63,394 bases of DNA from Patescibacteria group bacterium (GTDB lineage: Bacteria > Patescibacteriota > Minisyncoccia > Phycocordibacterales > Phycocordibacteraceae). The DNA lies in the NCBI GenBank assembly GCA_038078715.1, contig JBBTSU010000003.1:34861-98254 (forward strand), read 5' to 3'. Positions 51,390 through 62,712 of the stretch are shown in pieces. Position 1 is the stretch's first letter, and every line of letters begins with the position of its first letter. Below the pieces are notes generated by a model. The model was given only the letters and a program-made list of their open reading frames with translations, had not been told where the DNA came from and made no database searches. A program made the position numbers and the translations under genes.

Positions 51390-54300
51390 TTATGCAAGTG
51401 CCTTGAGGTTATCCACGGCAAGCGTGGTCTCCCCGTTTCTAATAGATACCTTGGCCTTGAGAAGGACGCAGGAACCCTCTACCAGTGCAGGATTCTGTTC
51501 CTTATAGAGCTTTGGGAAGACTACTCCTTCAATGGAATCAGTCTTGTCCTCAAAGCGCACAAAGGACATCTTCTCTCCGTTTTTTGTAAGAAGAGTACGG
51601 ACACTTGCAACAAGCGCAGGGAGGATAACGGGAAGATTCTGCTGGGGCTCTTCCTTGATCTTCCCGATTGTCATGGTGGCTTTACTCATCACCGTACCGT
51701 GCGAATCAAGCGGATGTCCGGAGATATAAATACCAAGGAGCTCCTTTTCCCATCTGAGCTTGTCGCGAAGGGTGGTCTTAAGATCACTCTCCGGAAGAAT
51801 CAAGCTCGGTGCCACAGAGGCAAAGAGAGAGTCCTGGGTGGTGGGGGCGGTCGCGTCTCGGTGGAAGGTAAGAAGTGTTTCAATGTAAGTAAGAAGATGT
51901 GCACGCTCACCAAAACGATCAAGCGCACCACACTTAATGAGTGACTCAAGTGACTTTCGATTTAGATTTCTGTTCCCAATTCGACAAAGGAAATCAGAAA
52001 GGGAAGCGAAAGGTTCCGCCTTTTCGCGCTCAACGATGATGGCTTCTGAGATTCCTTCTCCGAAGTTCTTTATGGAAGAAAGTCCGAAACGGATAGTATT
52101 TTTGTTCTCACCGGCCACCGTAAACACAGAGCGGGATTCGTTCACGTCAGGCGGAAGCACAGGAACTTTGAGTCGCTCACATTCGGCGACCATGACCGCA
52201 ATCTGATCTACGTTTCCAGAGTCGGCGGTCAGTACGGCGGCCATGTACTCCACGGGGTAGTGAGCCTTCATGTACGCAGTCTGGTACGCCACTTTTCCGT
52301 AGGATGCGGCATGTGCTTTGTTGAATCCGTAGGCAGCGAACGGCTCAATCAACTTCCAGAGTGCTTCAGCGTTCGATTTAGAAAGCTTTGCATGATCCAT
52401 GAAGCCTGCGATGAGCTTTTCTTTCTGTGCCTCCATCTGTTCTGGGATCTTCTTACCCATAGCCTTACGAAGGGCGTCTGCCTCAAGCCATGAGTAGCCA
52501 CCAAGGCGCACCGCAATCAAAAGCACATCGTCCTGATATGTCACCACGCCATAGGAACGATCTAGGATCTCTTCTAGGCGAGGGTCAAGATACTTCACCA
52601 GCTTCGGATTTCGCTTTCGTTCAATGTAGGAAGGGATAGATTCAAGCGGACCTGGGCGATACAAGGCCACCATGGCGTTAATGTCGTGGATGGTGGTAGG
52701 ACGGAGCTCCTTTAAGTATCGGGTCATACCACTTCCTGCAAGCTGGAAGAGCCCTTCGGTTTCTCCACGCGCAAGCATCGCAAAGGTCTCTGCGTCATCA
52801 ATAGGAATCTTCTCAATATCAATCCAGGTATCGCGCGTGTCTTTTACGCGCTCCACGGAGTCAGCGAGAATGGCGAGGTTTTTAATACCGAGGAAGTCAA
52901 ACTTGAGAAGTCCCACACCACCATATTCATCAGTGATGGAGTACATGTCGTACTGGGTGATGAGCGCGCCATTCTCGTCTTCACTCTTCGGATCGTACTG
53001 AAGCGGTGCCCACTCAATGAGCGGGGAAGGAGCGATCACCACGCCGGCCGCGTGCACACCTACGTGACGCACACAGCCTTCAATGCGCTTAGCCAGATCT
53101 ATTACTTCGCGCACGTCATCATCCTCGTCGTAGAGTTTCTTTAGATCCTCCTCAAGCGTCATAGCGCGGTCAATGGTCATGGGAAACCCTTGTGAGCCGA
53201 TAGGAATGAGTTTGGCGATACGGTCTCCGGTGCCATAGGAATGTCCAAGGGCACGTGCGACATCGCGCACGGCGGCACGAGCAAGCATGGTACCGAAGGT
53301 ACCGATCTGTGCGACACGATCTTCACCGTACTTACGCTTTGCATACGCGATCACTTCACCACGCCGATTATCAGCAAAGTCCATATCAATATCCGGTGCT
53401 TTCGGACGCTCAGGGTTCAAGAAGCGTTCAAAGGGAAGTTTGTAGAAAATAGGATCCACGTTCGTCACACCGGTGAGGTAAGAAACGAGGGATCCTCCTG
53501 CAGAACCACGAGTGGTGGTGAGGATGCCTTCCTTACGCGCAAAGGTAAGGAGGTCGGAGACAATGAGGAAATACGGAGCAAAGCCTTTGTCCTTAATGAC
53601 TTGTAACTCATACTCTATGCGCTCTTCTACTTCCTTCGCCTTTTCCATTCCACGCATAGAAAGGCCGGCATAGGCACGATCTTTCAATTCTTCGTCGTGG
53701 GTCTTACCGCTTTCCACTTTAAACTCAGGGAACACCCACTCGCCAAGTGTGAACGAGAGGTTGCAGCGTTCTGCAATCTCACCACTGCGATCTACCGCAT
53801 CTTCCATGCCCGTAAACCACTTCCGCATATCCTTCTCGGAGGTGAAGGAGAAGTCTTCGTCTTCGTTAAATCCTTTCTCCCCATGCTGGATGCGACGAAG
53901 GACCGCACAGGCTTCACGATCTTCTGGTGCAAGAAAGTACACATCGTGCTGGGCAACGAGTGGCACACCCGAAGACTTTGAAAGAGTGATCAGTGCCTCC
54001 ATGCGTTTCTCGTGCCCCTCTACTTTCGGGTGATGGGTAATCTCAAGAAACACATTATCTTTCCCAAAAGTGCTCACGTATTCCTCTAGAAGAGCAGCCG
54101 CAGCTTTAAGATCTCCTGCTGCAACCGCTTGCACGACTTCTCCAGAGAAAGAAGGGATGAGGGCGATGACTCCTTCTTTGTGTTCGCGAAGTAACTCCTT
54201 ATCCATCCTCGGCCTCTCATTCAATCCTTCGGTGAACGACTTCGTGACAAGTGCAAGAAGGTTTTTGTATCCTTTTTCATTTTCTGCAAGAAGCACGAGA

Positions 54301-55447: not shown

Positions 55448-55786
55448 ATGTCTGTACGAATGCGCCACACGAGCTCCCACACGAAGAATCGTCGGAGTCA
55501 TCATGCTCTTAAGAACAAGAAAATAGTGACGGATAAGGAGACCGGAAATCTTCGTCTTCCGCACCGGCTTGATGAAAAGACCGGTATGTATAGAGGTAAG
55601 CTTATCGTCCCTCCAAAGGTAAAGAAGGCAAAGAAGGACTATGCCAAGGCAGATAAGGTAGGCCCTGCAGAAGGAAAGGTGCATCTTGAGAAGGTAGATG
55701 AACCAAAGGTAGAGAAGAAGGGTCTTCTCGGCCGTATGACTCAGGGACGAGCAAAAGCACGTTCAGGAATGGGAGGAGGAGTATAA
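55448..55786 (+). CDS. rpmF: 50S ribosomal protein L32 with C-terminal extension
   Basis: MSVRMRHT..HTKNRRSHHAL, LRLPHR..TGMYRGK; start at ATG 55448; about 60 extra C-terminal residues. Confidence 0.85.
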   Translation: MSVRMRHTSSHTKNRRSHHALKNKKIVTDKETGNLRLPHRLDEKTGMYRGKLIVPPKVKKAKKDYAKADKVGPAEGKVHLEKVDEPKVEKKGLLGRMTQGRAKARSGMGGGV

Positions 55787-55866
55787 ATCCTATCCCCACT
55801 GTACACAGGCCCACGCGATTGCGTGGGTCTTGTCGTTTGTTACTCTCAAGAGAGTTCTTTCTATAT

Positions 55867-56766
55867 ATGGCCAATCGGCATCTCGCGCGTTCCCTTGTGC
55901 TCCAGTCCCTCTTTGAATGGGATACGGCTGGTGTTCCTGCTGAAGAGGTGAAGAACATCCTTGCACGTAACACTCGTGAGTTTGGTGGAGATGACACCGA
56001 AGGGCCATTTATGGAATCTCTCCTTGAGGGTGTGCTCGCCAAGCATGACGATCTAGATTTGATTATTCAAAAAGCTGCACCCGATTGGCCCTTGGATCGC
56101 ATTGCACCAGTAGATAGAAACATTCTTCGTTTGGGGCTCTATGAGCTTTTGTTTGCGGACCGTGATCAGGTGCCGCCGAAGGTGGCGATTAACGAAGCGA
56201 TTGAACTGGCGAAGATCTTTGGAGGAGAGTCCTCAGGACGTTTTATTAACGGTGTGCTTGGTGCCGTGTACAAGGAGATGGGGGAGCCAGGAAAAGAGGA
56301 TGGGACAAAGAAGAAGGAGCGCATAGATCCACGCACCCTTCCGGTGGAAGAACTGGCAGGTGCAATTGTCTACGCACCACATGAGGGACAGTGCTATGTC
56401 GCGCTCGTGCATGACGTGTTTGGGCGTTGGACGCTGTCTAAGGGGCACATCAATGAAGAAGAGACCCCACAGCAAGGAGTGGCTCGTGTGATTCAGGAGG
56501 AGCTTGGACTTACGGGCACGGTAGAGGAAGTAGTTGGAGAGAACGAATACATTGCGTCACATCCTGAGAAAGGGAAGGTTCGTAAGCATGTGTACTTCTT
56601 CTTGGTGAAGACAGAGTTTTCAAAACTCTCTTTGAAGCAGAGTGGGGGACTGGACGATGCGCGGTGGTTTAGGCTTGCCGATATTCGCGCCCTTAACTTC
56701 TATGACGACATGCTTCCGATCGTCACCTCGGCCGTTCAAAAGCTCCTTGATAAGGCTTTGAAATAG
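55867..56766 (+). CDS. nusB: Transcription antitermination factor NusB fused to a NUDIX domain
   Basis: RHLAR..LQSLFEW, DRNILRLG.YE, VAINEAIELAK.FG..S..FINGVLG; then LSKGHINEEETPQQGVARVIQEELG; start at ATG 55867. Confidence 0.93.
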   Translation: MANRHLARSLVLQSLFEWDTAGVPAEEVKNILARNTREFGGDDTEGPFMESLLEGVLAKHDDLDLIIQKAAPDWPLDRIAPVDRNILRLGLYELLFADRDQVPPKVAINEAIELAKIFGGESSGRFINGVLGAVYKEMGEPGKEDGTKKKERIDPRTLPVEELAGAIVYAPHEGQCYVALVHDVFGRWTLSKGHINEEETPQQGVARVIQEELGLTGTVEEVVGENEYIASHPEKGKVRKHVYFFLVKTEFSKLSLKQSGGLDDARWFRLADIRALNFYDDMLPIVTSAVQKLLDKALK

Positions 56767-56787
56767 TTGGGGTATACTCCCTGATAT

Positions 56788-57471
56788 ATGGAGTTTACTG
56801 ACGCCGCAGAGAAGCTAGGACTTCCGTTTCGTGATCTCGCCCTTCTTGAAGAGGCGCTCACGCACCGTTCCTATCTTAATGAGAATAGAAGTTCTAAGGC
56901 GCATAATGAGCGTCTGGAGTTTCTTGGGGATGCAGTGCTTGAGCTTGCCACAACTCGTTTCCTCTTTGATAAGTTTCCAAAGAAACCAGAAGGGGAATTG
57001 ACTGCATACCGTGCTGCACTCGTGAATACGTATTCTATTGCTGCCGTTGCACAGGAACTTGGGGTGAACGATATGCTTCTTCTTTCTAAAGGGGAGAAGC
57101 GTGACACAGGGCGTGCACGCCAGATCATCCTTGCGAATGCCTTTGAAGCAATTGTGGGTGCGGTCTATCTTGATCAGGGATATGACGCCGCAGAAGCATT
57201 TCTCGCCAAACATCTCTATCCAAAACTAGAGAGTGTGCTTGAAGAGCGCAGCTACCAGGATGCCAAGAGTCGTTTTCAGGAACTCGCACAGGAACATGAT
57301 GGGGTGACGCCGAAGTACAAGACGTTAGAAGAGACTGGGCCCGATCATGACCGCCAGTTCACCGTCGGTGTATTTATAGGAGACGAGGAGATTGCGCAGG
57401 GAGAAGGGAAAAGCAAGCAGGAAGCAGAGCAGGATGCAGCCAAGAAGGGACTAGAGAAGAAGGGGTGGTAG
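56788..57471 (+). CDS. rnc: Ribonuclease III
   Basis: ALTHRS, HNERLEFLGDAVLEL, FEAIVGA.YLD, dsRBD GPDHDR.F..GKSKQEAEQ.AA. Confidence 0.98.
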   Translation: MEFTDAAEKLGLPFRDLALLEEALTHRSYLNENRSSKAHNERLEFLGDAVLELATTRFLFDKFPKKPEGELTAYRAALVNTYSIAAVAQELGVNDMLLLSKGEKRDTGRARQIILANAFEAIVGAVYLDQGYDAAEAFLAKHLYPKLESVLEERSYQDAKSRFQELAQEHDGVTPKYKTLEETGPDHDRQFTVGVFIGDEEIAQGEGKSKQEAEQDAAKKGLEKKGW

Positions 57472-57493
57472 GTTCGAGTCCTGGACCGCCAGC
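57470..57493 (+). repeat. Cassette-boundary repeat copy A (tRNA 3'-end-like)
   Basis: aggttcgagtcctggaccgccagc; the last 16 nt match copy B at 13/16. Confidence 0.65.
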
Positions 57494-57511
57494 AAAAGGT
57501 ATACTTCTGAC

Positions 57512-58195
57512 ATGCCCGAAGGTATTAGCCTATTCCGCAGAAAGACCCCTGAAGAACAGGAGAAGAACAAACGTCGAAAGGAAACGCTTAAGGATGCGCG
57601 CCTAGAACGACATCGCATCGTTTTTGGTTCTCAATTTCGTGAGAAACTCCCCGTCATCCGCAAGGCCGTCCAAGAACTACAGGAAAAATATCCCGCGATA
57701 GTTGCCGTCTCATTTTTCGGGTCACACATGAAAGCGTATGCAAACGACGCGTCAGATCTAGACGTGCTTGTTTCTATAGATATATCAAAATCTAAAGTTG
57801 ATTTAGACGATGCACATGACTATCGAGAATGGCTTGGTGGCCAGGTGCGGATCGCGCTTGATTCCGTAATGGGCAGTGTCTACAAGGTAGACGTCACCCC
57901 AGACCTACTTTCCAGCCCCCAAGAAGAATATTCTCATTACCTCTTCCTTCCATCGTTAGGAACTGAGGTGCAGTCGTACAGGGAGGCTTCTATTGCTGAA
58001 ATGGAGAAATACGGTCAAAGAGGAGAGCGCAAGTGGCGCGAACTCATGAAGCGTCTCTGGGCGTATGAAAACGAAGGGATGCCGAAATCTCTCGCTAGCA
58101 AACGAAAGAATCTATACCCGCAGAGTCTTTCTGCCGCCCGGAGTTACTTTCTACGAAAAGGCCGTAAGAATGACGATTTAGGCGAAGAGGGCTAA
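57512..58195 (+). CDS. Pol-beta-like nucleotidyltransferase domain protein, paralogue C (cassette 1)
   Basis: FFGSHMKAYANDASDLDV; LYPQSLSAARSYF. Confidence 0.75.
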   Translation: MPEGISLFRRKTPEEQEKNKRRKETLKDARLERHRIVFGSQFREKLPVIRKAVQELQEKYPAIVAVSFFGSHMKAYANDASDLDVLVSIDISKSKVDLDDAHDYREWLGGQVRIALDSVMGSVYKVDVTPDLLSSPQEEYSHYLFLPSLGTEVQSYREASIAEMEKYGQRGERKWRELMKRLWAYENEGMPKSLASKRKNLYPQSLSAARSYFLRKGRKNDDLGEEG

Positions 58196-58226
58196 AAAGG
58201 TTCCAACATCGTCCCAGACAGCCAGC
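58196..58226 (+). repeat. Cassette-boundary repeat copy B
   Basis: aaaggttccaacatcgtcccagacagccagc, directly after the TAA. Confidence 0.95.
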
Positions 58227-58268
58227 TACAAGTGCTACAATCTATCCACAGCAATCGGACATACCTCC

Positions 58269-58607
58269 ATGAGTCTTTCTGAACAGGCCGCGCGCTTACT
58301 GCTTATCTTGGCGGTTGCCTGCGCCATTCCTGCAGGACTAGCTGGCGCACTAAGTATATTCGTCGGGCTGCTCGCATCAGTGGCTCCGTATGCTAATCCC
58401 CTGTACGCCTTACTAGGATGGGTAGTGCCTGTACTTATCTGCGCTGTGCTTCTCGCTCTATTGATCTTAGCGGTAGCGAGCTATCGGTCTAAAAACCTGG
58501 GTCGCTCAATGATTCTCTCGATTATCTCTATAAGCATCAATCTTGCTATCTCCCTACTCCTTTTCACTGAAAGCGGGAGGGACATTCTTCGCCATCTGAT
58601 GACCTAA
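58269..58607 (+). CDS. Small multi-pass membrane protein (cassette 2)
   Basis: 112 aa, about 3 hydrophobic segments; TGcTACAAT upstream. Confidence 0.65.
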   Translation: MSLSEQAARLLLILAVACAIPAGLAGALSIFVGLLASVAPYANPLYALLGWVVPVLICAVLLALLILAVASYRSKNLGRSMILSIISISINLAISLLLFTESGRDILRHLMT

Positions 58608-58624
58608 CACATTAAGAAGGCGAC

Positions 58625-58656
58625 AAAGGTTCCAACATCGTCCAGAGACAGCCAGC
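58625..58656 (+). repeat. Cassette-boundary repeat copy C
   Basis: aaaggttccaacatcgtccagagacagccagc. Confidence 0.95.
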
Positions 58657-58676
58657 TAGAGGTATACTGAGCATAC

Positions 58677-59423
58677 ATGCCGTATCGTCCGGAACAAGGA
58701 CCAGAATTTCCAGATGTTGCCAAAGAAATAGGAAAGAATATAGAAGTGCTGCGAAAGGCGGGAAAATTGAAGTACCGGGGAGAATATGTTCTCAATGCTT
58801 CACCAATTATTTGTGAAGTACACCCACGTCAAATAAAAGAAGGAGTTCTTGGGGTGAACATAAATGCATACCAAGAAACGGAAAAGGACACGCACCCACC
58901 AGCACGTCTTGTACTCAAGGAAGGAATGGCAGATTCTCAAGACGTCAACAGCTTTCTTTCAGGAGTTGATTTTAATAAGTTTGTATTAAGCGTTATTGCA
59001 AGTCAGCGCGAACAACTTCATACAACCGAGCAGGAAATACGACTACGACAGGTGAAAATAGCTCGTGCCAAAGCGGTTCCCGATAGGCTCAATTTATACA
59101 AGCCCAGTGCGGAAGAATATATCGATGGAATTCTTGAAGATTTTCCGGCTGGTAGCAATCCAACTGAGGATCAGCTGAAAGAAATCGGCGTAACCGCTGA
59201 TAGATATAATCGAATTGTTCATGACCGAGCAGCAACAATTGAAGACGTTGCTAAAGAGATTATGGAAGGCGAAGAACAAGATAATGGCGTGGGCCTCCGA
59301 ATGGTGCAACAAGAACTTGAATGGCTTGAGGATATGGAGGCTAAAGTAATGCAGGAACAATATAAAATAATCCTTTCCTCTATTCCTTCTGCTGTCTTGC
59401 TTTCAGTAGATATTGGGTTTTAG
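58677..59423 (+). CDS. Hypothetical protein (cassette 3), visibly A/T-rich
   Basis: 248-aa ORF, 8 nt after TATACT; no recognised motif. Confidence 0.7.
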   Translation: MPYRPEQGPEFPDVAKEIGKNIEVLRKAGKLKYRGEYVLNASPIICEVHPRQIKEGVLGVNINAYQETEKDTHPPARLVLKEGMADSQDVNSFLSGVDFNKFVLSVIASQREQLHTTEQEIRLRQVKIARAKAVPDRLNLYKPSAEEYIDGILEDFPAGSNPTEDQLKEIGVTADRYNRIVHDRAATIEDVAKEIMEGEEQDNGVGLRMVQQELEWLEDMEAKVMQEQYKIILSSIPSAVLLSVDIGF

Positions 59424-59455
59424 AAAGGTCCCAACATCGTCCAGAGACAGCCAGC
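59424..59455 (+). repeat. Cassette-boundary repeat copy D
   Basis: aaaggtcccaacatcgtccagagacagccagc, directly after the TAG. Confidence 0.95.
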
Positions 59456-59477
59456 AAGAAATGATAGTATTTGAGCC

Positions 59478-60125
59478 ATGACACTCGTTAAATTTGAAGA
59501 CATACCTATCCGCGAATGCGGTGAGGAACTTGTAGATTTAGCACAATACGATTTCTTTCTTGAGCGTGCGTACTACAACCAAGGTCTTTCTTCAGAGCCT
59601 CGCATGTTCCTTCGCAAATCTGTTGCAGATAAACTCGCCGAAATCCAAAAAGGCCTCGGTGGCTACAAGTTCAAGATATGGGATGGTTTCCGCCCTCGAT
59701 CTGTACAGCAGGCAATCTATGAGAAATTCTGGAAGGAACTGAGCGAAGCGCACTCAGAATGGGATGAAGAAAGACTCAAAATGGAAGTTGGCGTATTTGT
59801 TACAGCTCCAAACAATCCAAACCGTATTCCGCCGCATGCAACCGGTTCTACCATTGATCTCACACTAGTTGATACGGAAGGAAACGAATTAGATATGGGC
59901 ACCGTGTTCGACTTCTTTGGCGCAGAAGCAGCACCTCTTTATTTTGAAGAAAATCCTGGAAACGAGGAAGCAGCGAAAAATAGAAAGATACTGCGCGAAG
60001 CAATGTTCTCCGCAGGCTTCGGAGGGGACAAGAACGAATGGTGGCACTTCGACTACCACAACCAGAAGTGGGCGGCAGAATTAGGGCACCCTGAGGCTAT
60101 CTACGGAGAAGCCCCTACGCCTTAA
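59478..60125 (+). CDS. D-Ala-D-Ala dipeptidase, M15D (VanX/DdpX family) (cassette 4)
   Basis: WDGFRP, PPHATGSTIDLTL, DMGT.FD, EWWHF. Confidence 0.9.
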   Translation: MTLVKFEDIPIRECGEELVDLAQYDFFLERAYYNQGLSSEPRMFLRKSVADKLAEIQKGLGGYKFKIWDGFRPRSVQQAIYEKFWKELSEAHSEWDEERLKMEVGVFVTAPNNPNRIPPHATGSTIDLTLVDTEGNELDMGTVFDFFGAEAAPLYFEENPGNEEAAKNRKILREAMFSAGFGGDKNEWWHFDYHNQKWAAELGHPEAIYGEAPTP

Positions 60126-60150
60126 AAAGGTTCCAACACCATCCCAGACA
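60126..60150 (+). repeat. Cassette-boundary repeat copy E (diverged at the 3' end)
   Basis: aaaggttccaacaccatcccagaca, directly after the TAA. Confidence 0.85.
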
Positions 60151-60173
60151 AGCGAAGAGTGTATACTATCCCT

Positions 60174-60491
60174 ATGTCAGAAGACCTAAAACAACCTGGA
60201 GAAGCACTTCCAAAGGAGCTTCAGACTTTTATTACTACGTACGAGGGAGCGTCAGAAGACCGTTGGATAGAGTGGTCTAAAGAATTAAGTGTAGAAAATA
60301 TCCGCCTCCTCCGGAACATGGCGGTTGCGCTCCTGCAACTTGGATCAGAGAATACGAATAGACGTGCAGAAGGTCTCCAGCTCTATAAAAATGGACAGGG
60401 CAGTACCGATGCACTCGTCGCTCCTCTTTTCTTTCTTTCCGAAGCAGCATTGAAGCGTATTGAAAGCGGACTCAATCAAGTCACCACCTAA
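60174..60491 (+). CDS. Hypothetical protein (cassette 5)
   Basis: ATG 60174 lies 6 nt after TATACT; 105 aa. Confidence 0.6.
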   Translation: MSEDLKQPGEALPKELQTFITTYEGASEDRWIEWSKELSVENIRLLRNMAVALLQLGSENTNRRAEGLQLYKNGQGSTDALVAPLFFLSEAALKRIESGLNQVTT

Positions 60492-60522
60492 TGCGCCTTC
60501 AGTGCGGTATACTTTTGGATAA

Positions 60523-62712
60523 ATGTTGAAGCGACTAGAAATCGCAGGATTCAAATCATTCGCGAAGAAGACTTCGCTTGATTTCTCATCGTCGGTCACT
60601 GCGGTTGTGGGTCCCAACGGGTCGGGTAAGTCCAATGTGGCTGAAGCCTTCCGCTTTGCACTCGGCGAGCAGTCTATGAAGAGTATGCGCGGGAAGCGTA
60701 GCGAAGATCTTATCTGGAGCGGTTCTAACACATCTCCTCGTTCTAACCGCGCCTCAGTGGCCGTTGTGTTTGATAACCGGAAGAAGACCTTCCCGAAGAT
60801 GGAGTTTGATGAGGTGTCTATTGAGCGCGCAGTGTATCGCGATGGTGCAAGCGAATACTCAGTGAACGGGTCTAAGGTGCGCCTCCGTGATGTGCAGGAG
60901 CTTCTTGCGAGCGCCAACATCGGTAACACGGGGCACCACATCATTTCCCAAGGAGAAGCGGACCGTATTCTTCTCTCCGCACCCCGTGAACGCCGCGCCA
61001 TGCTTGAGGACGCGCTTGGTCTTCGGATCTTTGAATTCAAGAAACAGGAGGCAGAGAAGAAGCTTGAGAAGACTGAAGAGAATGTAAAGCAGGTAGAGGC
61101 GCTTCGTCGGGAGATCCTTCCACACATTAAATTTCTTTCAAAGCAGGTAGAGAAGCTTGAGCGTGCAGAAGAACTCATCAAGGAACTCACCGCCGCAGTG
61201 CGTGAATATTTCGCAATAGAGGAACTCTACATTCGTAGAGAGAAAGCAACCTCTTCTACTCGTCTCAAGGACGCGAAGGAGCGTCTTGCCACCGTCTCTG
61301 CAGAGCTCGCACCACTCCAAGATCGTGCAGCAATGGATTCTGAGGGAATGAAGCGTGCAGAGGCAGTACGAAACGCAGAGCGAGAGCTTGATCGTGCGCT
61401 TGCGGACCATGCCATCTTGTCTCGTGAGATGGGACGAGTAGAGGGTGCACTTGAAGCCGCACGTAAGCGTGCCGAAGTGGCGACGCAGGAACCATACGTG
61501 AAAGTATCTCGCGAAGATTTGTCTGCCCTTAAGCACGAAGTGGAGGCGCAGGCGCGTATTGGAGACGGAAGCCCTGAAGCAATTCGTGCAGCCTTCATGG
61601 CCATCAAGTCTGCGATCACCGCGTTCTTTGAGCGTTTTGCAGGGGGAGGTGAACGGATGGCAGAAGAAGAACGTGAAGTGTATGTGCTAGAGGAAGAGCG
61701 TAAGGGTCTCGTCGCACGTGAAGAAGAACTTGCGGCCGCTTCAGAAAAGGCTCGCCATGCGCTCGTGCGCGCCCGTGAAGAGTCTGCCGCACATGAGGAG
61801 ACGGGGCGTGAGAATCAGTACCGTGTGCTTGATATGGCAGAGGCGAAGGCACGCGAAGAGGCGACTGTGGTTCGTGAAGAGAACCGTCAGCATGAGATTT
61901 CTATGCTTGCCGAGGAGCTTGAGCGCGATCGTGCAGAAGTTATGGCACTTGCCGGTACTGCGGCACTTTCATACGCACCACTCTCTGCGCTTCCAGAAGA
62001 GGAGCGTCGGGTGCAGGAAGATCGCAAGCGCAGCATGGAGCGCCTTAAGATTCGTGTAGAGGAAGCAGGAGGAACTGGAGAGGATGTACGCGCCGAATAC
62101 AACGATGCGACTGAGCGTGAGCAGTTCCTTACCCGCGAGCTTGAGGATCTTGCGAAGTCTGCAGAAGGACTCCGTGCCCTTATTCGTGATCTTGATGAGG
62201 AGCTTGGGAAGACCTTTGCCGAAGGACTCGCGAAAGTGAATGCATCCTTCACTGAGTTCTTTGCGATTATGTTCGGTGGCGGGAGTGCACGGTTGATACT
62301 TGAAGAATCCGAGGAACCTGACGAGGAAGATGAAGAAGGAGAGGTACATGAATGGAAGCCAGGTATTGAGATCTTGGTCAATCTTCCGAAGAAGCGTGTG
62401 CAGGCACTCATGCAGCTTTCAGGAGGAGAGCGCGCTCTTACGTCTATCGCTCTTATCTTTGCGATGAGCCAGGTGAACCCACCACCGTTCCTTATTCTGG
62501 ATGAGACGGATGCGGCGCTTGATGAAGCGAACTCTCGCCGTTACGGTGACATGATTGAAGGACTCGCGAAGAAATCACAGCTTATCGTCATTACCCACAA
62601 CCGCGAGACCATGAGTCGTGCAGGTATACTCTACGGAGTCACCATGGGAAATGATGGTATTAGTAAATTGTTATCCGTTAAATTTGAAGAAGCGATGATG
62701 GTCGCGAAATAG
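60523..62712 (+). CDS. smc: SMC-family ATPase, short (729 aa), no recognisable hinge
   Basis: Walker A GPNGSGKSN, Q-loop ISQGE, coiled coil, LSGGE, Walker B LILDETDAALD, ITHN. Confidence 0.9.
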   Translation: MLKRLEIAGFKSFAKKTSLDFSSSVTAVVGPNGSGKSNVAEAFRFALGEQSMKSMRGKRSEDLIWSGSNTSPRSNRASVAVVFDNRKKTFPKMEFDEVSIERAVYRDGASEYSVNGSKVRLRDVQELLASANIGNTGHHIISQGEADRILLSAPRERRAMLEDALGLRIFEFKKQEAEKKLEKTEENVKQVEALRREILPHIKFLSKQVEKLERAEELIKELTAAVREYFAIEELYIRREKATSSTRLKDAKERLATVSAELAPLQDRAAMDSEGMKRAEAVRNAERELDRALADHAILSREMGRVEGALEAARKRAEVATQEPYVKVSREDLSALKHEVEAQARIGDGSPEAIRAAFMAIKSAITAFFERFAGGGERMAEEEREVYVLEEERKGLVAREEELAAASEKARHALVRAREESAAHEETGRENQYRVLDMAEAKAREEATVVREENRQHEISMLAEELERDRAEVMALAGTAALSYAPLSALPEEERRVQEDRKRSMERLKIRVEEAGGTGEDVRAEYNDATEREQFLTRELEDLAKSAEGLRALIRDLDEELGKTFAEGLAKVNASFTEFFAIMFGGGSARLILEESEEPDEEDEEGEVHEWKPGIEILVNLPKKRVQALMQLSGGERALTSIALIFAMSQVNPPPFLILDETDAALDEANSRRYGDMIEGLAKKSQLIVITHNRETMSRAGILYGVTMGNDGISKLLSVKFEEAMMVAK

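Follow-up and report, generated by a model that had tools for sequence, protein, structure and literature searches.

A gene array between rnc and smc

The DNA analysed here, called the window in what follows, is a stretch of 63,394 nucleotides (nt) on contig JBBTSU010000003.1 from an ultra-small groundwater member of the Patescibacteria (coordinates without a prefix refer to this 63-kb window, G000 is the window's own genome, and C-numbers denote contigs). Between rnc, the gene for RNase III, and smc it carries, at 57471-60491, five accessory genes separated by four copies of a short direct repeat, AAAGGTTCCAACATCGTCC(C)AGACAGCCAGC, at 58196, 58625, 59424 and 60126. Judged from its sequence features and from comparison with relatives, this block is a lineage-specific accessory array in a family of gene-cassette arrays anchored at tRNA-Gln and widespread in Patescibacteria; it is one instance of that family and no one-off locus. 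Its parts, with the open reading frames (ORFs), product lengths in amino acids (aa) and flanking core genes, are as follows.

56788-57471, + strand: rnc (RNase III), the upstream core flank, with matches to Ribonucleas_3_3 (E = 3e-39) and a dsrm domain
57469-57471: TAG stop codon of rnc, overlapping the head
57471-57495, + strand: head, GGTTCGAGTCCTGGACCGCCAGCAA, which mimics the T-loop, T-stem and acceptor 3' strand of tRNA-Gln
57496-58226, + strand: cassette 1, with its ORF at 57512-58195 (227 aa) and its 3' site AAAGGTTCCAACATCGTCCCAGACAGCCAGC at 58196-58226
57500-57505: -10 box TATACT of cassette 1
58227-58656, + strand: cassette 2, with its ORF at 58269-58607 (112 aa, membrane protein) and its site at 58625-58656
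58236-58241: -10 box TACAAT of cassette 2
58657-59455, + strand: cassette 3, with its ORF at 58677-59423 (248 aa, ORFan) and its site at 59424-59455, abutting the stop codon
58663-58668: -10 box TATACT of cassette 3
59456-60159, + strand: cassette 4, with its ORF at 59478-60125 (215 aa, VanX/DdpX-type D-Ala-D-Ala dipeptidase)
59465-59470: -10 box TAGTAT of cassette 4, part of the extended -10 element TGATAGTAT at 59462-59470
From 60126: decayed site of cassette 4, AAAGGTTCCAACACCATCCCAGACAAGCGAAGAG
60160-60491, + strand: fifth, terminal accessory gene without a site of its own, with its ORF at 60174-60491 (105 aa)
60162-60167: -10 box TATACT of the fifth gene
60492-62712, + strand: native smc promoter region GTGCGGTATACTTTT (-10 box at 60508-60513) and smc (60523-62712; SMC_N, E = 2e-69)

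Searching the window with AAAGGTTCCAACATCGTCC at up to three mismatches returned exactly these four matches, all on the + strand (0, 0, 1 and 2 mismatches at 58196, 58625, 59424 and 60126, respectively), against 0.02 expected from shuffled sequences, which bears out the four copies listed in a first-pass annotation made from the letters alone; an independent repeat search recovered the same family, with spacings of 429, 799 and 702 nt. All copies are placed between a stop codon and the -10-like box of the following ORF. Those at 58196, 59424 and 60126 directly adjoin the stop (0 nt), and the one at 58625 follows it after 17 nt. These distances had been described correctly at first pass, as had the overlap of the element at 57470 with the rnc TAG, the -10 boxes before the five genes and the lack of a repeat before smc: no copy stands upstream of smc, and none lies between the stop codon of the fifth gene and the smc promoter. 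Two further statements have to be modified. The element at 57470, taken for a related copy, is not a diverged repeat but a look-alike of the tRNA-Gln 3' end that heads the array, and the repeat, which is indeed absent from the rest of the window, recurs at four other places in the genome.

The -10 boxes precede the ATG by 6-9 nt at most cassette starts and do so at rnc and smc as well, so that this spacing is a general habit of the genome; no -35/-10 pair in the window reached the sigma-70 consensus in a promoter scan. As a side observation, -10 boxes of the form GGTATACT stand 6-9 nt before ATG and lack a Shine-Dalgarno sequence at 56770-56790, 57500-57514, 60508-60525 and most cassette starts, which suggests that mRNAs of this genome are as a rule leaderless or near-leaderless.

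In more than 20 relatives of the same genus and order, among them the repeat-bearing genomes G018 and G020, smc follows rnc after 20-60 nt; empty junctions of this kind had been named at first pass as something worth looking for. Because rnc abuts smc in these relatives, and because the promoter motif GTGCGGTATACTTTT lies directly 3' of rnc there (e.g., L034) and 3' of the fifth gene in the window, the 3-kb block at 57471-60491, that is everything between the rnc stop codon and the native smc promoter, is a lineage-specific gain. The junction is also empty in a close relative (81% and 80% amino acid identity in RNase III and SMC), which has instead, between nusB-NUDIX and rnc, a single membrane-protein cassette preceded by a head and followed by a terminal site (L119:945-1500, JAGOSU010000018.1), the head again beginning exactly at the TAG stop codon of the upstream gene. 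An array one gene further upstream indicates that heads and arrays move between neighbouring junctions on a short evolutionary scale.

The cargo agrees in profile searches with the gene types assigned at first pass (nucleotidyltransferase, membrane protein, hypothetical protein, VanX-type dipeptidase, hypothetical protein), weakly so for the nucleotidyltransferase of cassette 1 (PF01909, E = 1e-4) and clearly for the dipeptidase of cassette 4 (Peptidase_M15, VanX-type, E = 6e-27); no family was matched by the 105-aa product of the fifth gene. The only match of the cassette 1 protein in a set of 5.8 billion clustered proteins is a 155-aa fragment (99% identity), and the cassette 3 protein matches nothing but itself in the protein collection. 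Neither has homologues in the other arrays, both being ORFans or nearly so, and none of the five cargo proteins was matched in the rnc loci fetched from relatives. The AT-richness noted at first pass for cassettes 3-4 is confirmed for cassette 3 by its G+C content (GC) of 42.6%, or 32.5% at third codon positions (GC3), the long ORFs of the genome having 50.6 +/- 2.2% and 49.4 +/- 4.7%, respectively. Codon usage, likewise computed gene by gene, gave z values of -2.7, -3.8 and -2.4 for cassettes 1, 2 and 3, compared with +0.3 for rnc and +1.4 for smc; cassettes 1-3, three of the five genes, thus carry foreign codon usage. Homologues of the VanX-type dipeptidase (70-80% identity) were also seen in other Patescibacteria directly 3' of tRNA-Ile or tRNA-Ala, with no recognisable site (L263:3898-4651, L266:1211-1952).

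Two features upstream of rnc may be recorded here. The gene at 55819-56766 encodes NusB with a NUDIX hydrolase domain fused to its C-terminus (315 aa), a fusion kept in a close relative (82% identity). Between the L32 gene and nusB, outside the array, an Rfam match to the Leu operon leader (55764-55834; 29 bits with a gathering cut-off of 50, E = 0.008) is probably spurious.

Distribution, heads and sites of the array family

Elsewhere in G000, site copies occur only in clusters between accessory genes (three on C10, two on C5 and one on C6), so that the 658-kb genome holds about ten of them, all in accessory clusters and none at core operons. At up to three mismatches the site was present in 6 of the 41 genomes first searched (G000 and 40 relatives), and a wider search, extending one proposed at first pass, found it in 34 of 401 genomes from the order (27 of 223 genera), the reversed control giving 0 matches; an exact 20-mer of the site occurs on more than 100 contigs labelled Patescibacteria, Parcubacteria, Paceibacterota or similar. 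Successive sites are a median of 551 nt apart (interquartile range 412-708 nt, 191 spacings). The content of the arrays varies at syntenic hot spots: after murG-gltX, G020 has ten sites and G021 six, with different cargo, and after dus-holB-tRNA-Gln (G020, G021 and G022) cassettes differ in number and kind by species. The same cassette can be found in different arrays when genomes are compared, and sites carry genome-specific variants (GACAGCC in G000, GACTGCC in G020 and G021, GACCCCC in G188 and G204). The orientation of the gene relative to the site also varies, about 40% of cassettes being reversed, which argues for a site that acts at the level of DNA and not of the transcript.

Three side observations concern these sites and their contents. 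First, the 20-mer GTTCCAACATCGTCCCAGAC appears once per contig in GC-rich genomes of Rhodobacterales type (L097, L125, L136 and others) and in prophage-like contigs (L224-L256), always with the same flanks. A phage or plasmid carrier was considered on account of 33 matches to the 20-mer in IMG/VR and was rejected: these matches are GC-rich (60-70%), the flanking sequence that they share would fit a single conserved gene, and they lack the right half of the site. The same half is missing in the Rhodobacterales genomes, and we read both groups of matches as coincidence. Second, the first unit after one head on C5 of G020 has no ORF and holds a 72-nt piece corresponding to positions 2135-2206 of bacterial 23S rRNA, in the L1-stalk region (L024:11713-11784, - strand; 45 bits, E = 2e-10). 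A strong terminator hairpin comes next, and the unit may represent a cassette that is non-coding. Third, a 32-nt module, TCTAGACAGAACCTAnCAynnnTTGCAnAAAG, stands directly 5' of about 8% of sites (e.g., in L024, L025, L026, L102 and L140). Read on the opposite strand it contains an extended -10 box, TGnTAGGTTCT, with the TTGGAAC of the site 17 nt upstream; it is commoner beside reverse-oriented cassettes (9 versus 5) and absent from all copies in the window.

The head of the rnc-smc array, GGTTCGAGTCCTGGACCGCCAGCAA, is identical at 20 of 25 positions to the 3' end of the genome's tRNA-Gln(UUG) and at 19 of 25 to that of tRNA-Gln(CUG). Neither ARAGORN nor Rfam detects a tRNA at 57471-57495, and the first G of the head is the last base of the rnc TAG stop codon. 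We presume this element to be the landing pad, the counterpart of attI or attB. At least four further heads of the same kind exist in G000:

C10:40244: followed by three cassettes and three sites, before a core metallo-hydrolase gene
C2:65386: followed by one small cassette and a decayed site, before msrA
C7:23899: at the contig end
C5:78027: a further head

In other genomes it is usually a real tRNA-Gln gene that plays this role, and ARAGORN places one upstream of sites in 29 non-redundant loci among those fetched. G020 and G021 also have mimic heads directly after the stop codon of a conserved gene, and four of the seven mimic heads examined start at the TAG or TAA stop codon of a housekeeping gene. 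A derivation of the whole repeat from a tRNA 3' end was tried and rejected, as no tRNA of G000 matches the repeat and only its right half is similar to tRNA-Gln. Two neighbouring cases deserve mention in their own right. On C6 of G000 (L003:3150-4250, - strand), two tRNA-Arg genes flank a lone cassette of 245 aa whose stop codon is joined by a single diverged site, and the 3' ends of tRNAs other than tRNA-Gln may occasionally be entry points. In G370 (C3, about 51818-51984; L066/L222), tRNA-Gln is followed after 43 nt by a partial copy of itself (positions 18-70), which resembles the trace left when a classical integrase inserts an element at this tRNA.

The consensus of 263 distinct sites consists of an A-rich tract, a G and GTTCCAACATCGTCCCAGACnGCCAGCAA, with information falling to zero on both sides; since sites were ascertained by similarity to the 20-mer, positions inside it are biased and the flanks are not. 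The conserved block measures about 36 nt across sites, those of the window being about 31-36 nt long. Its left half, GTTCCAACATCGTCC, is nearly invariant across the 27 genera and its flanks are not, while the right (3') half resembles the 3' end of tRNA-Gln.

Which gene a site belongs to can be read from cassettes that recur. One cassette common to two genomes (87% identity) is homologous from about 4 nt past its upstream site through the CAGCAAT of its downstream site and then diverges at once; in the upstream site, by contrast, the two genomes differ in the right half. A relative of the window's dipeptidase (79% protein identity) is a cassette in the tRNA-Gln array of another genome, and nucleotide homology between these two cassettes (77%) runs from the ATG through the stop codon into the site and ends there. 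In addition, a same-strand stop codon falls 0-10 nt before GTTCC at 92 of 261 sites as opposed to 12 of 261 random positions. Because of these three observations, the site is assigned to the 3' end of the preceding gene and the unit is promoter, ORF and site; it follows that the fifth gene of the window has no site of its own. This reverses the register given at first pass, in which each unit began with the repeat: by the present reading the site travels with the gene upstream of it.

The last bases of the sites covary with the resident tRNA-Gln. Over the 29 loci, matches between the acceptor and discriminator bases of tRNA-Gln and those of the array sites numbered 149, compared with 132.8 +/- 3.3 for 10,000 permuted sets, all of which fell short of the observed number. 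The last two acceptor positions (A6 and A7), the discriminator (D) and the base after it (+1) agree in 90-100% of loci and switch together (CAGC, CAAC, TAGC or GAGC), and the first acceptor position (A1) almost never agrees between the resident tRNA-Gln and the sites. The covariation points to a crossover core, which is likely to lie at the 3' end of the site. The arrays are polar as well: in 27 of them compared, the last site departed further from the consensus than the first in 18, and the reverse held in 6 (Wilcoxon p = 0.007), and in the window the last site, at 60126, is the most decayed. This polarity of decay suggests that cassettes enter at the head.

Serial insertion and its alternatives

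The observations above are in our view best accounted for by serial site-specific insertion of cassettes by a trans-acting recombinase encoded elsewhere, a reading inferred from sequence to which we assign a probability of roughly 0.65. The enzyme would join the site of a free, probably circular, cassette to the head or to a resident site, with the crossover in a short core, CAGC(AA), that both partners share and that closes the site on its 3' side; in tRNA-Gln this core has its counterpart in the final acceptor bases, the discriminator and the bases that come directly after. With every such insertion the head would stay where it is and the incoming cassette would be placed beside it, cassettes of longer standing would end up distal and decay together with their sites, and every cassette is predicted to be expressed from its own promoter. 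Of the accretion system suggested in the first-pass annotation, the gathering of accessory, self-expressed genes at an att-like site stands (empty junctions, variable hot spots and shared cassettes agree with it), and the register and the tRNA-Gln origin are what differ; gene order does vary between relatives, and the repeat is not a generic element spread over the genome.

Several findings weigh against this reading. A recombinase linked to the repeat, serine or tyrosine, was sought and none was found. Each genome checked has one tyrosine recombinase (PF00589), which in G000 is encoded on C16 (20258-21268), at a distance from every array; genomes have this gene whether or not they carry arrays, and in G000, G020 and G021 no array lies close to it. 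G000 also has a serine recombinase, on C2. Serine recombinases (PF00239) are absent from G016, from G018 and from G020, the genome with the most sites (16) among the 40 relatives first searched, at 94% completeness. No HUH transposase of the Y1 family (PF01797) occurs in G000, G020, G021 or G022, and several site-free genomes do have one. At about 75 loci no recombinase family recurs beside the arrays, the only recurrent neighbours being core genes (holB, dus and a gene for an FAD protein). The site itself shows no dyad symmetry, and conservation ends with the proposed core on the 3' side, both of which are unusual for tyrosine or serine recombinases. Furthermore, assemblies of this population (Hainich well H41) with identical RNase III or dipeptidase all show one gene order and thus no sign of current activity, no phage contig in IMG/VR carries a full site, and the relatives with an empty rnc-smc junction have no head there; nor does serial insertion account for the arrival of heads at new junctions. 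Finally, the tests of covariation and polarity ignore the shared ancestry of the genomes, and the choice of sites by their similarity to the 20-mer is a further caveat.

As to the kind of enzyme, the tyrosine recombinase of G000 scores best as XerD, XerA or XerC (about 250-256 bits) and reaches 143 bits with the integron integrase model TIGR02249, whose cut-off is 265; an integron integrase was rejected on these grounds, the sole tyrosine recombinase being Xer-like, below the cut-off and unlinked. PF00239 is present in three of the four site-free genomes checked (G001, G004 and G005). An attC-like fold was rejected too, there being no stable shared fold: in seven of eight foldings of the copies (+ and - strands) the energy was no better than for shuffled sequences (z between -0.2 and +1.3), and the one minus-strand fold with z = -2.6 forms a hairpin that is not common to the other copies. 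No relevant Rfam family was found in the window or in three arrays, and in the consensus AAAAGGTTCCAACATCGTCCCAGACnGCCAGCAA, which has no dyad, the arms match by eye at 4-5 of 11 positions. The absence of attC architecture, of spacing typical for clustered regularly interspaced short palindromic repeats (CRISPR) and of a nearby integrase, all stated at first pass, is borne out by the folds, the median spacing and the survey of neighbours, respectively. Since conservation lies only 5' of the crossover, the enzyme may be no classical integrase but a single-strand nicking one of HUH type, or else the one Xer-type recombinase present, put to an unusual use.

Among the alternatives, the one that survives best needs no dedicated recombinase. 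In it, sites of about 35 nt would be homology anchors for RecA-dependent or homology-facilitated exchange of cassettes after natural DNA uptake, and the tRNA-Gln-like part would persist as homology shared across species. Patescibacteria commonly carry genes for DNA uptake, the searches found no linked or co-occurring recombinase, and direct repeats of high identity with genome-specific variants are what gene conversion would give. However, about 33 nt is very short for efficient exchange by RecA, and the idea gives no account of a site placed exactly at the stop codons of unrelated genes, of the near-invariance of GTTCCAACATCGTCC across 27 genera with variable flanks, of the sharp boundary at CAGC(AA) or of the decay from head to tail. 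We therefore regard it as unlikely.

The repeat might, as a second alternative, be an expression element (an insulator, a terminator/promoter module or a tRNA-like signal for mRNA 3' processing) that spread by duplication, the arrays being ordinary variable islands. Its position in the window between stop codon and -10 box would fit such a role, as would the 17 nt that separate TTGGAAC from the conserved extended -10 element on the opposite strand at the roughly 8% of sites with the 32-nt module, and tRNA-like elements are processing signals in organelles. Yet the repeat is not genome-wide, its ten or so copies lying in accessory clusters and none at core operons, the site has neither a stable or conserved fold nor an Rfam match, and the varying orientation of the genes excludes a single signal at transcript level. 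Covariation with the tRNA-Gln 3' end and a start at tRNA-Gln are unexpected for a promoter or terminator, and some copies precede the terminator of a convergent gene and no promoter at all, which together make this explanation quite improbable.

Least probable of all, and by our estimate hardly credible, is an array of eroded classical tRNA-targeting integrative elements (islands or prophages with integrases of their own) that arrived in succession and were each reduced to little more than one gene and an attR scar, for although elements that integrate in tandem at tRNA genes do leave the tRNA 3' end behind as direct repeats, and one genome has the partial tRNA-Gln duplication just downstream of the gene described above, the units are uniformly small (median 551 nt) and largely single-gene, the site is no tRNA copy (its left half is unrelated and highly conserved, and its acceptor-like part differs except for the last ~4 bases), and no integrase remnants were found within or beside the arrays.

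Returning to serial insertion by a recombinase acting in trans, we found no published description of such arrays in the full-text literature searched on Patescibacteria, also known as the candidate phyla radiation (CPR), in connection with integrons, gene cassettes, tRNA-Gln or direct repeats. The genomes of these bacteria are tiny (0.5-1 Mb), and to our knowledge few mobile elements have been described in them. We consider the odds about even that Patescibacteria have a gene-capture platform of their own, independent of integrons, with stop-codon-tagged, self-expressed cassettes, a one-sided, unstructured site of ~33 nt, tRNA-Gln or a 25-nt mimic of it as the target and an unlinked enzyme acting in trans. 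A phylum-wide cassette system unlinked to an integrase would, if true, explain how accessory genes are renewed in Patescibacteria, the arrays of the window and of its genome holding mostly ORFans or membrane proteins along with enzymes such as the VanX-type dipeptidase, and it would mean that the problem integrons solve has been solved a second time by independent evolution. With a short site defined by sequence, arrays can be found by a simple pattern search and the pool of cassettes catalogued. A recombinase for a short linear site could serve as a tool, and that of the arrays could be sought by phylogenetic profiling or biochemical pull-down.

Comparison with known systems

Integrons, including sedentary chromosomal ones and clusters of attC sites lacking integron-integrases (CALINs), are similar in that their arrays, too, are polar and made up of small cassettes, most of them with one gene, whose functions are unrelated and for the most part unknown. 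Each cassette has a 3' recombination site next to the stop codon; both systems have a distinct primary site at the head of the array, and in both the content differs among close relatives and cassettes are shared between genomes. The arrays described here are nevertheless not integrons. They have no IntI, the only tyrosine recombinase being Xer-like and unlinked, and their sites are 31-36 nt long, conserved in sequence and unstructured, whereas attC sites span 57-141 nt and are folded (R''-L''/L'-R'). The head is tRNA-Gln or a mimic of it, in contrast to attI with the common promoter Pc and promoterless cassettes; every cassette of the window has its own -10 box, about 40% of array cassettes are reversed, and several arrays share a genome of 0.6 Mb.

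Islands or prophages inserted in tandem at tRNA genes by tyrosine integrases are likewise anchored at a tRNA 3' end and leave the tRNA intact (as at the 29 loci with tRNA-Gln; the window uses a mimic). Their units are also separated by direct repeats related to the tRNA 3' end, with internal junctions resembling a reconstituted attP and a last junction that is a hybrid with the original downstream DNA. They differ from the arrays in three respects: the units of the arrays are single genes of ~0.3-1.4 kb without an integrase, only the last ~4-6 bases of the site match the resident tRNA, and portable mimics of the tRNA end, fused to housekeeping stop codons, serve as anchors too.

Integrative mobile elements exploiting Xer (IMEX), which depend on Xer recombinases and insert at dif, and the pdif modules of Acinetobacter plasmids share with the arrays the use of short sites (~28-33 bp) that bound small modules without an integrase, and a host-encoded, unlinked recombinase acts on them in trans, as we propose here. 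The array site, however, lacks the two-arm dyad of dif (a site of 28-31 bp with a spacer of 6-8 bp), pdif sites alternate in orientation and array sites are all direct, genomes without site matches have no single dif-like copy of the site, and dif is anchored at the replication terminus where the arrays are anchored at tRNA-Gln. Two other candidates were set aside: repetitive extragenic palindromic sequences or bacterial interspersed mosaic elements (REP/BIME) mobilised by RAYT or by HUH enzymes of IS200/IS605 type, as PF01797 is absent from the array-bearing genomes of the genus and no hairpin is shared, and large-serine-recombinase elements, as PF00239 does not co-occur with sites.

CRISPR loci resemble the arrays in architecture only, through direct repeats of ~30 nt, a polar layout and a degenerate terminal repeat. 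The stretches between array repeats are expressed genes with a median of 551 nt, unlike CRISPR spacers of 30-40 nt (test range ~26-72), and the first element of an array differs from the internal repeats, which fits recombination of the type attB x attP better than duplication of a repeat.

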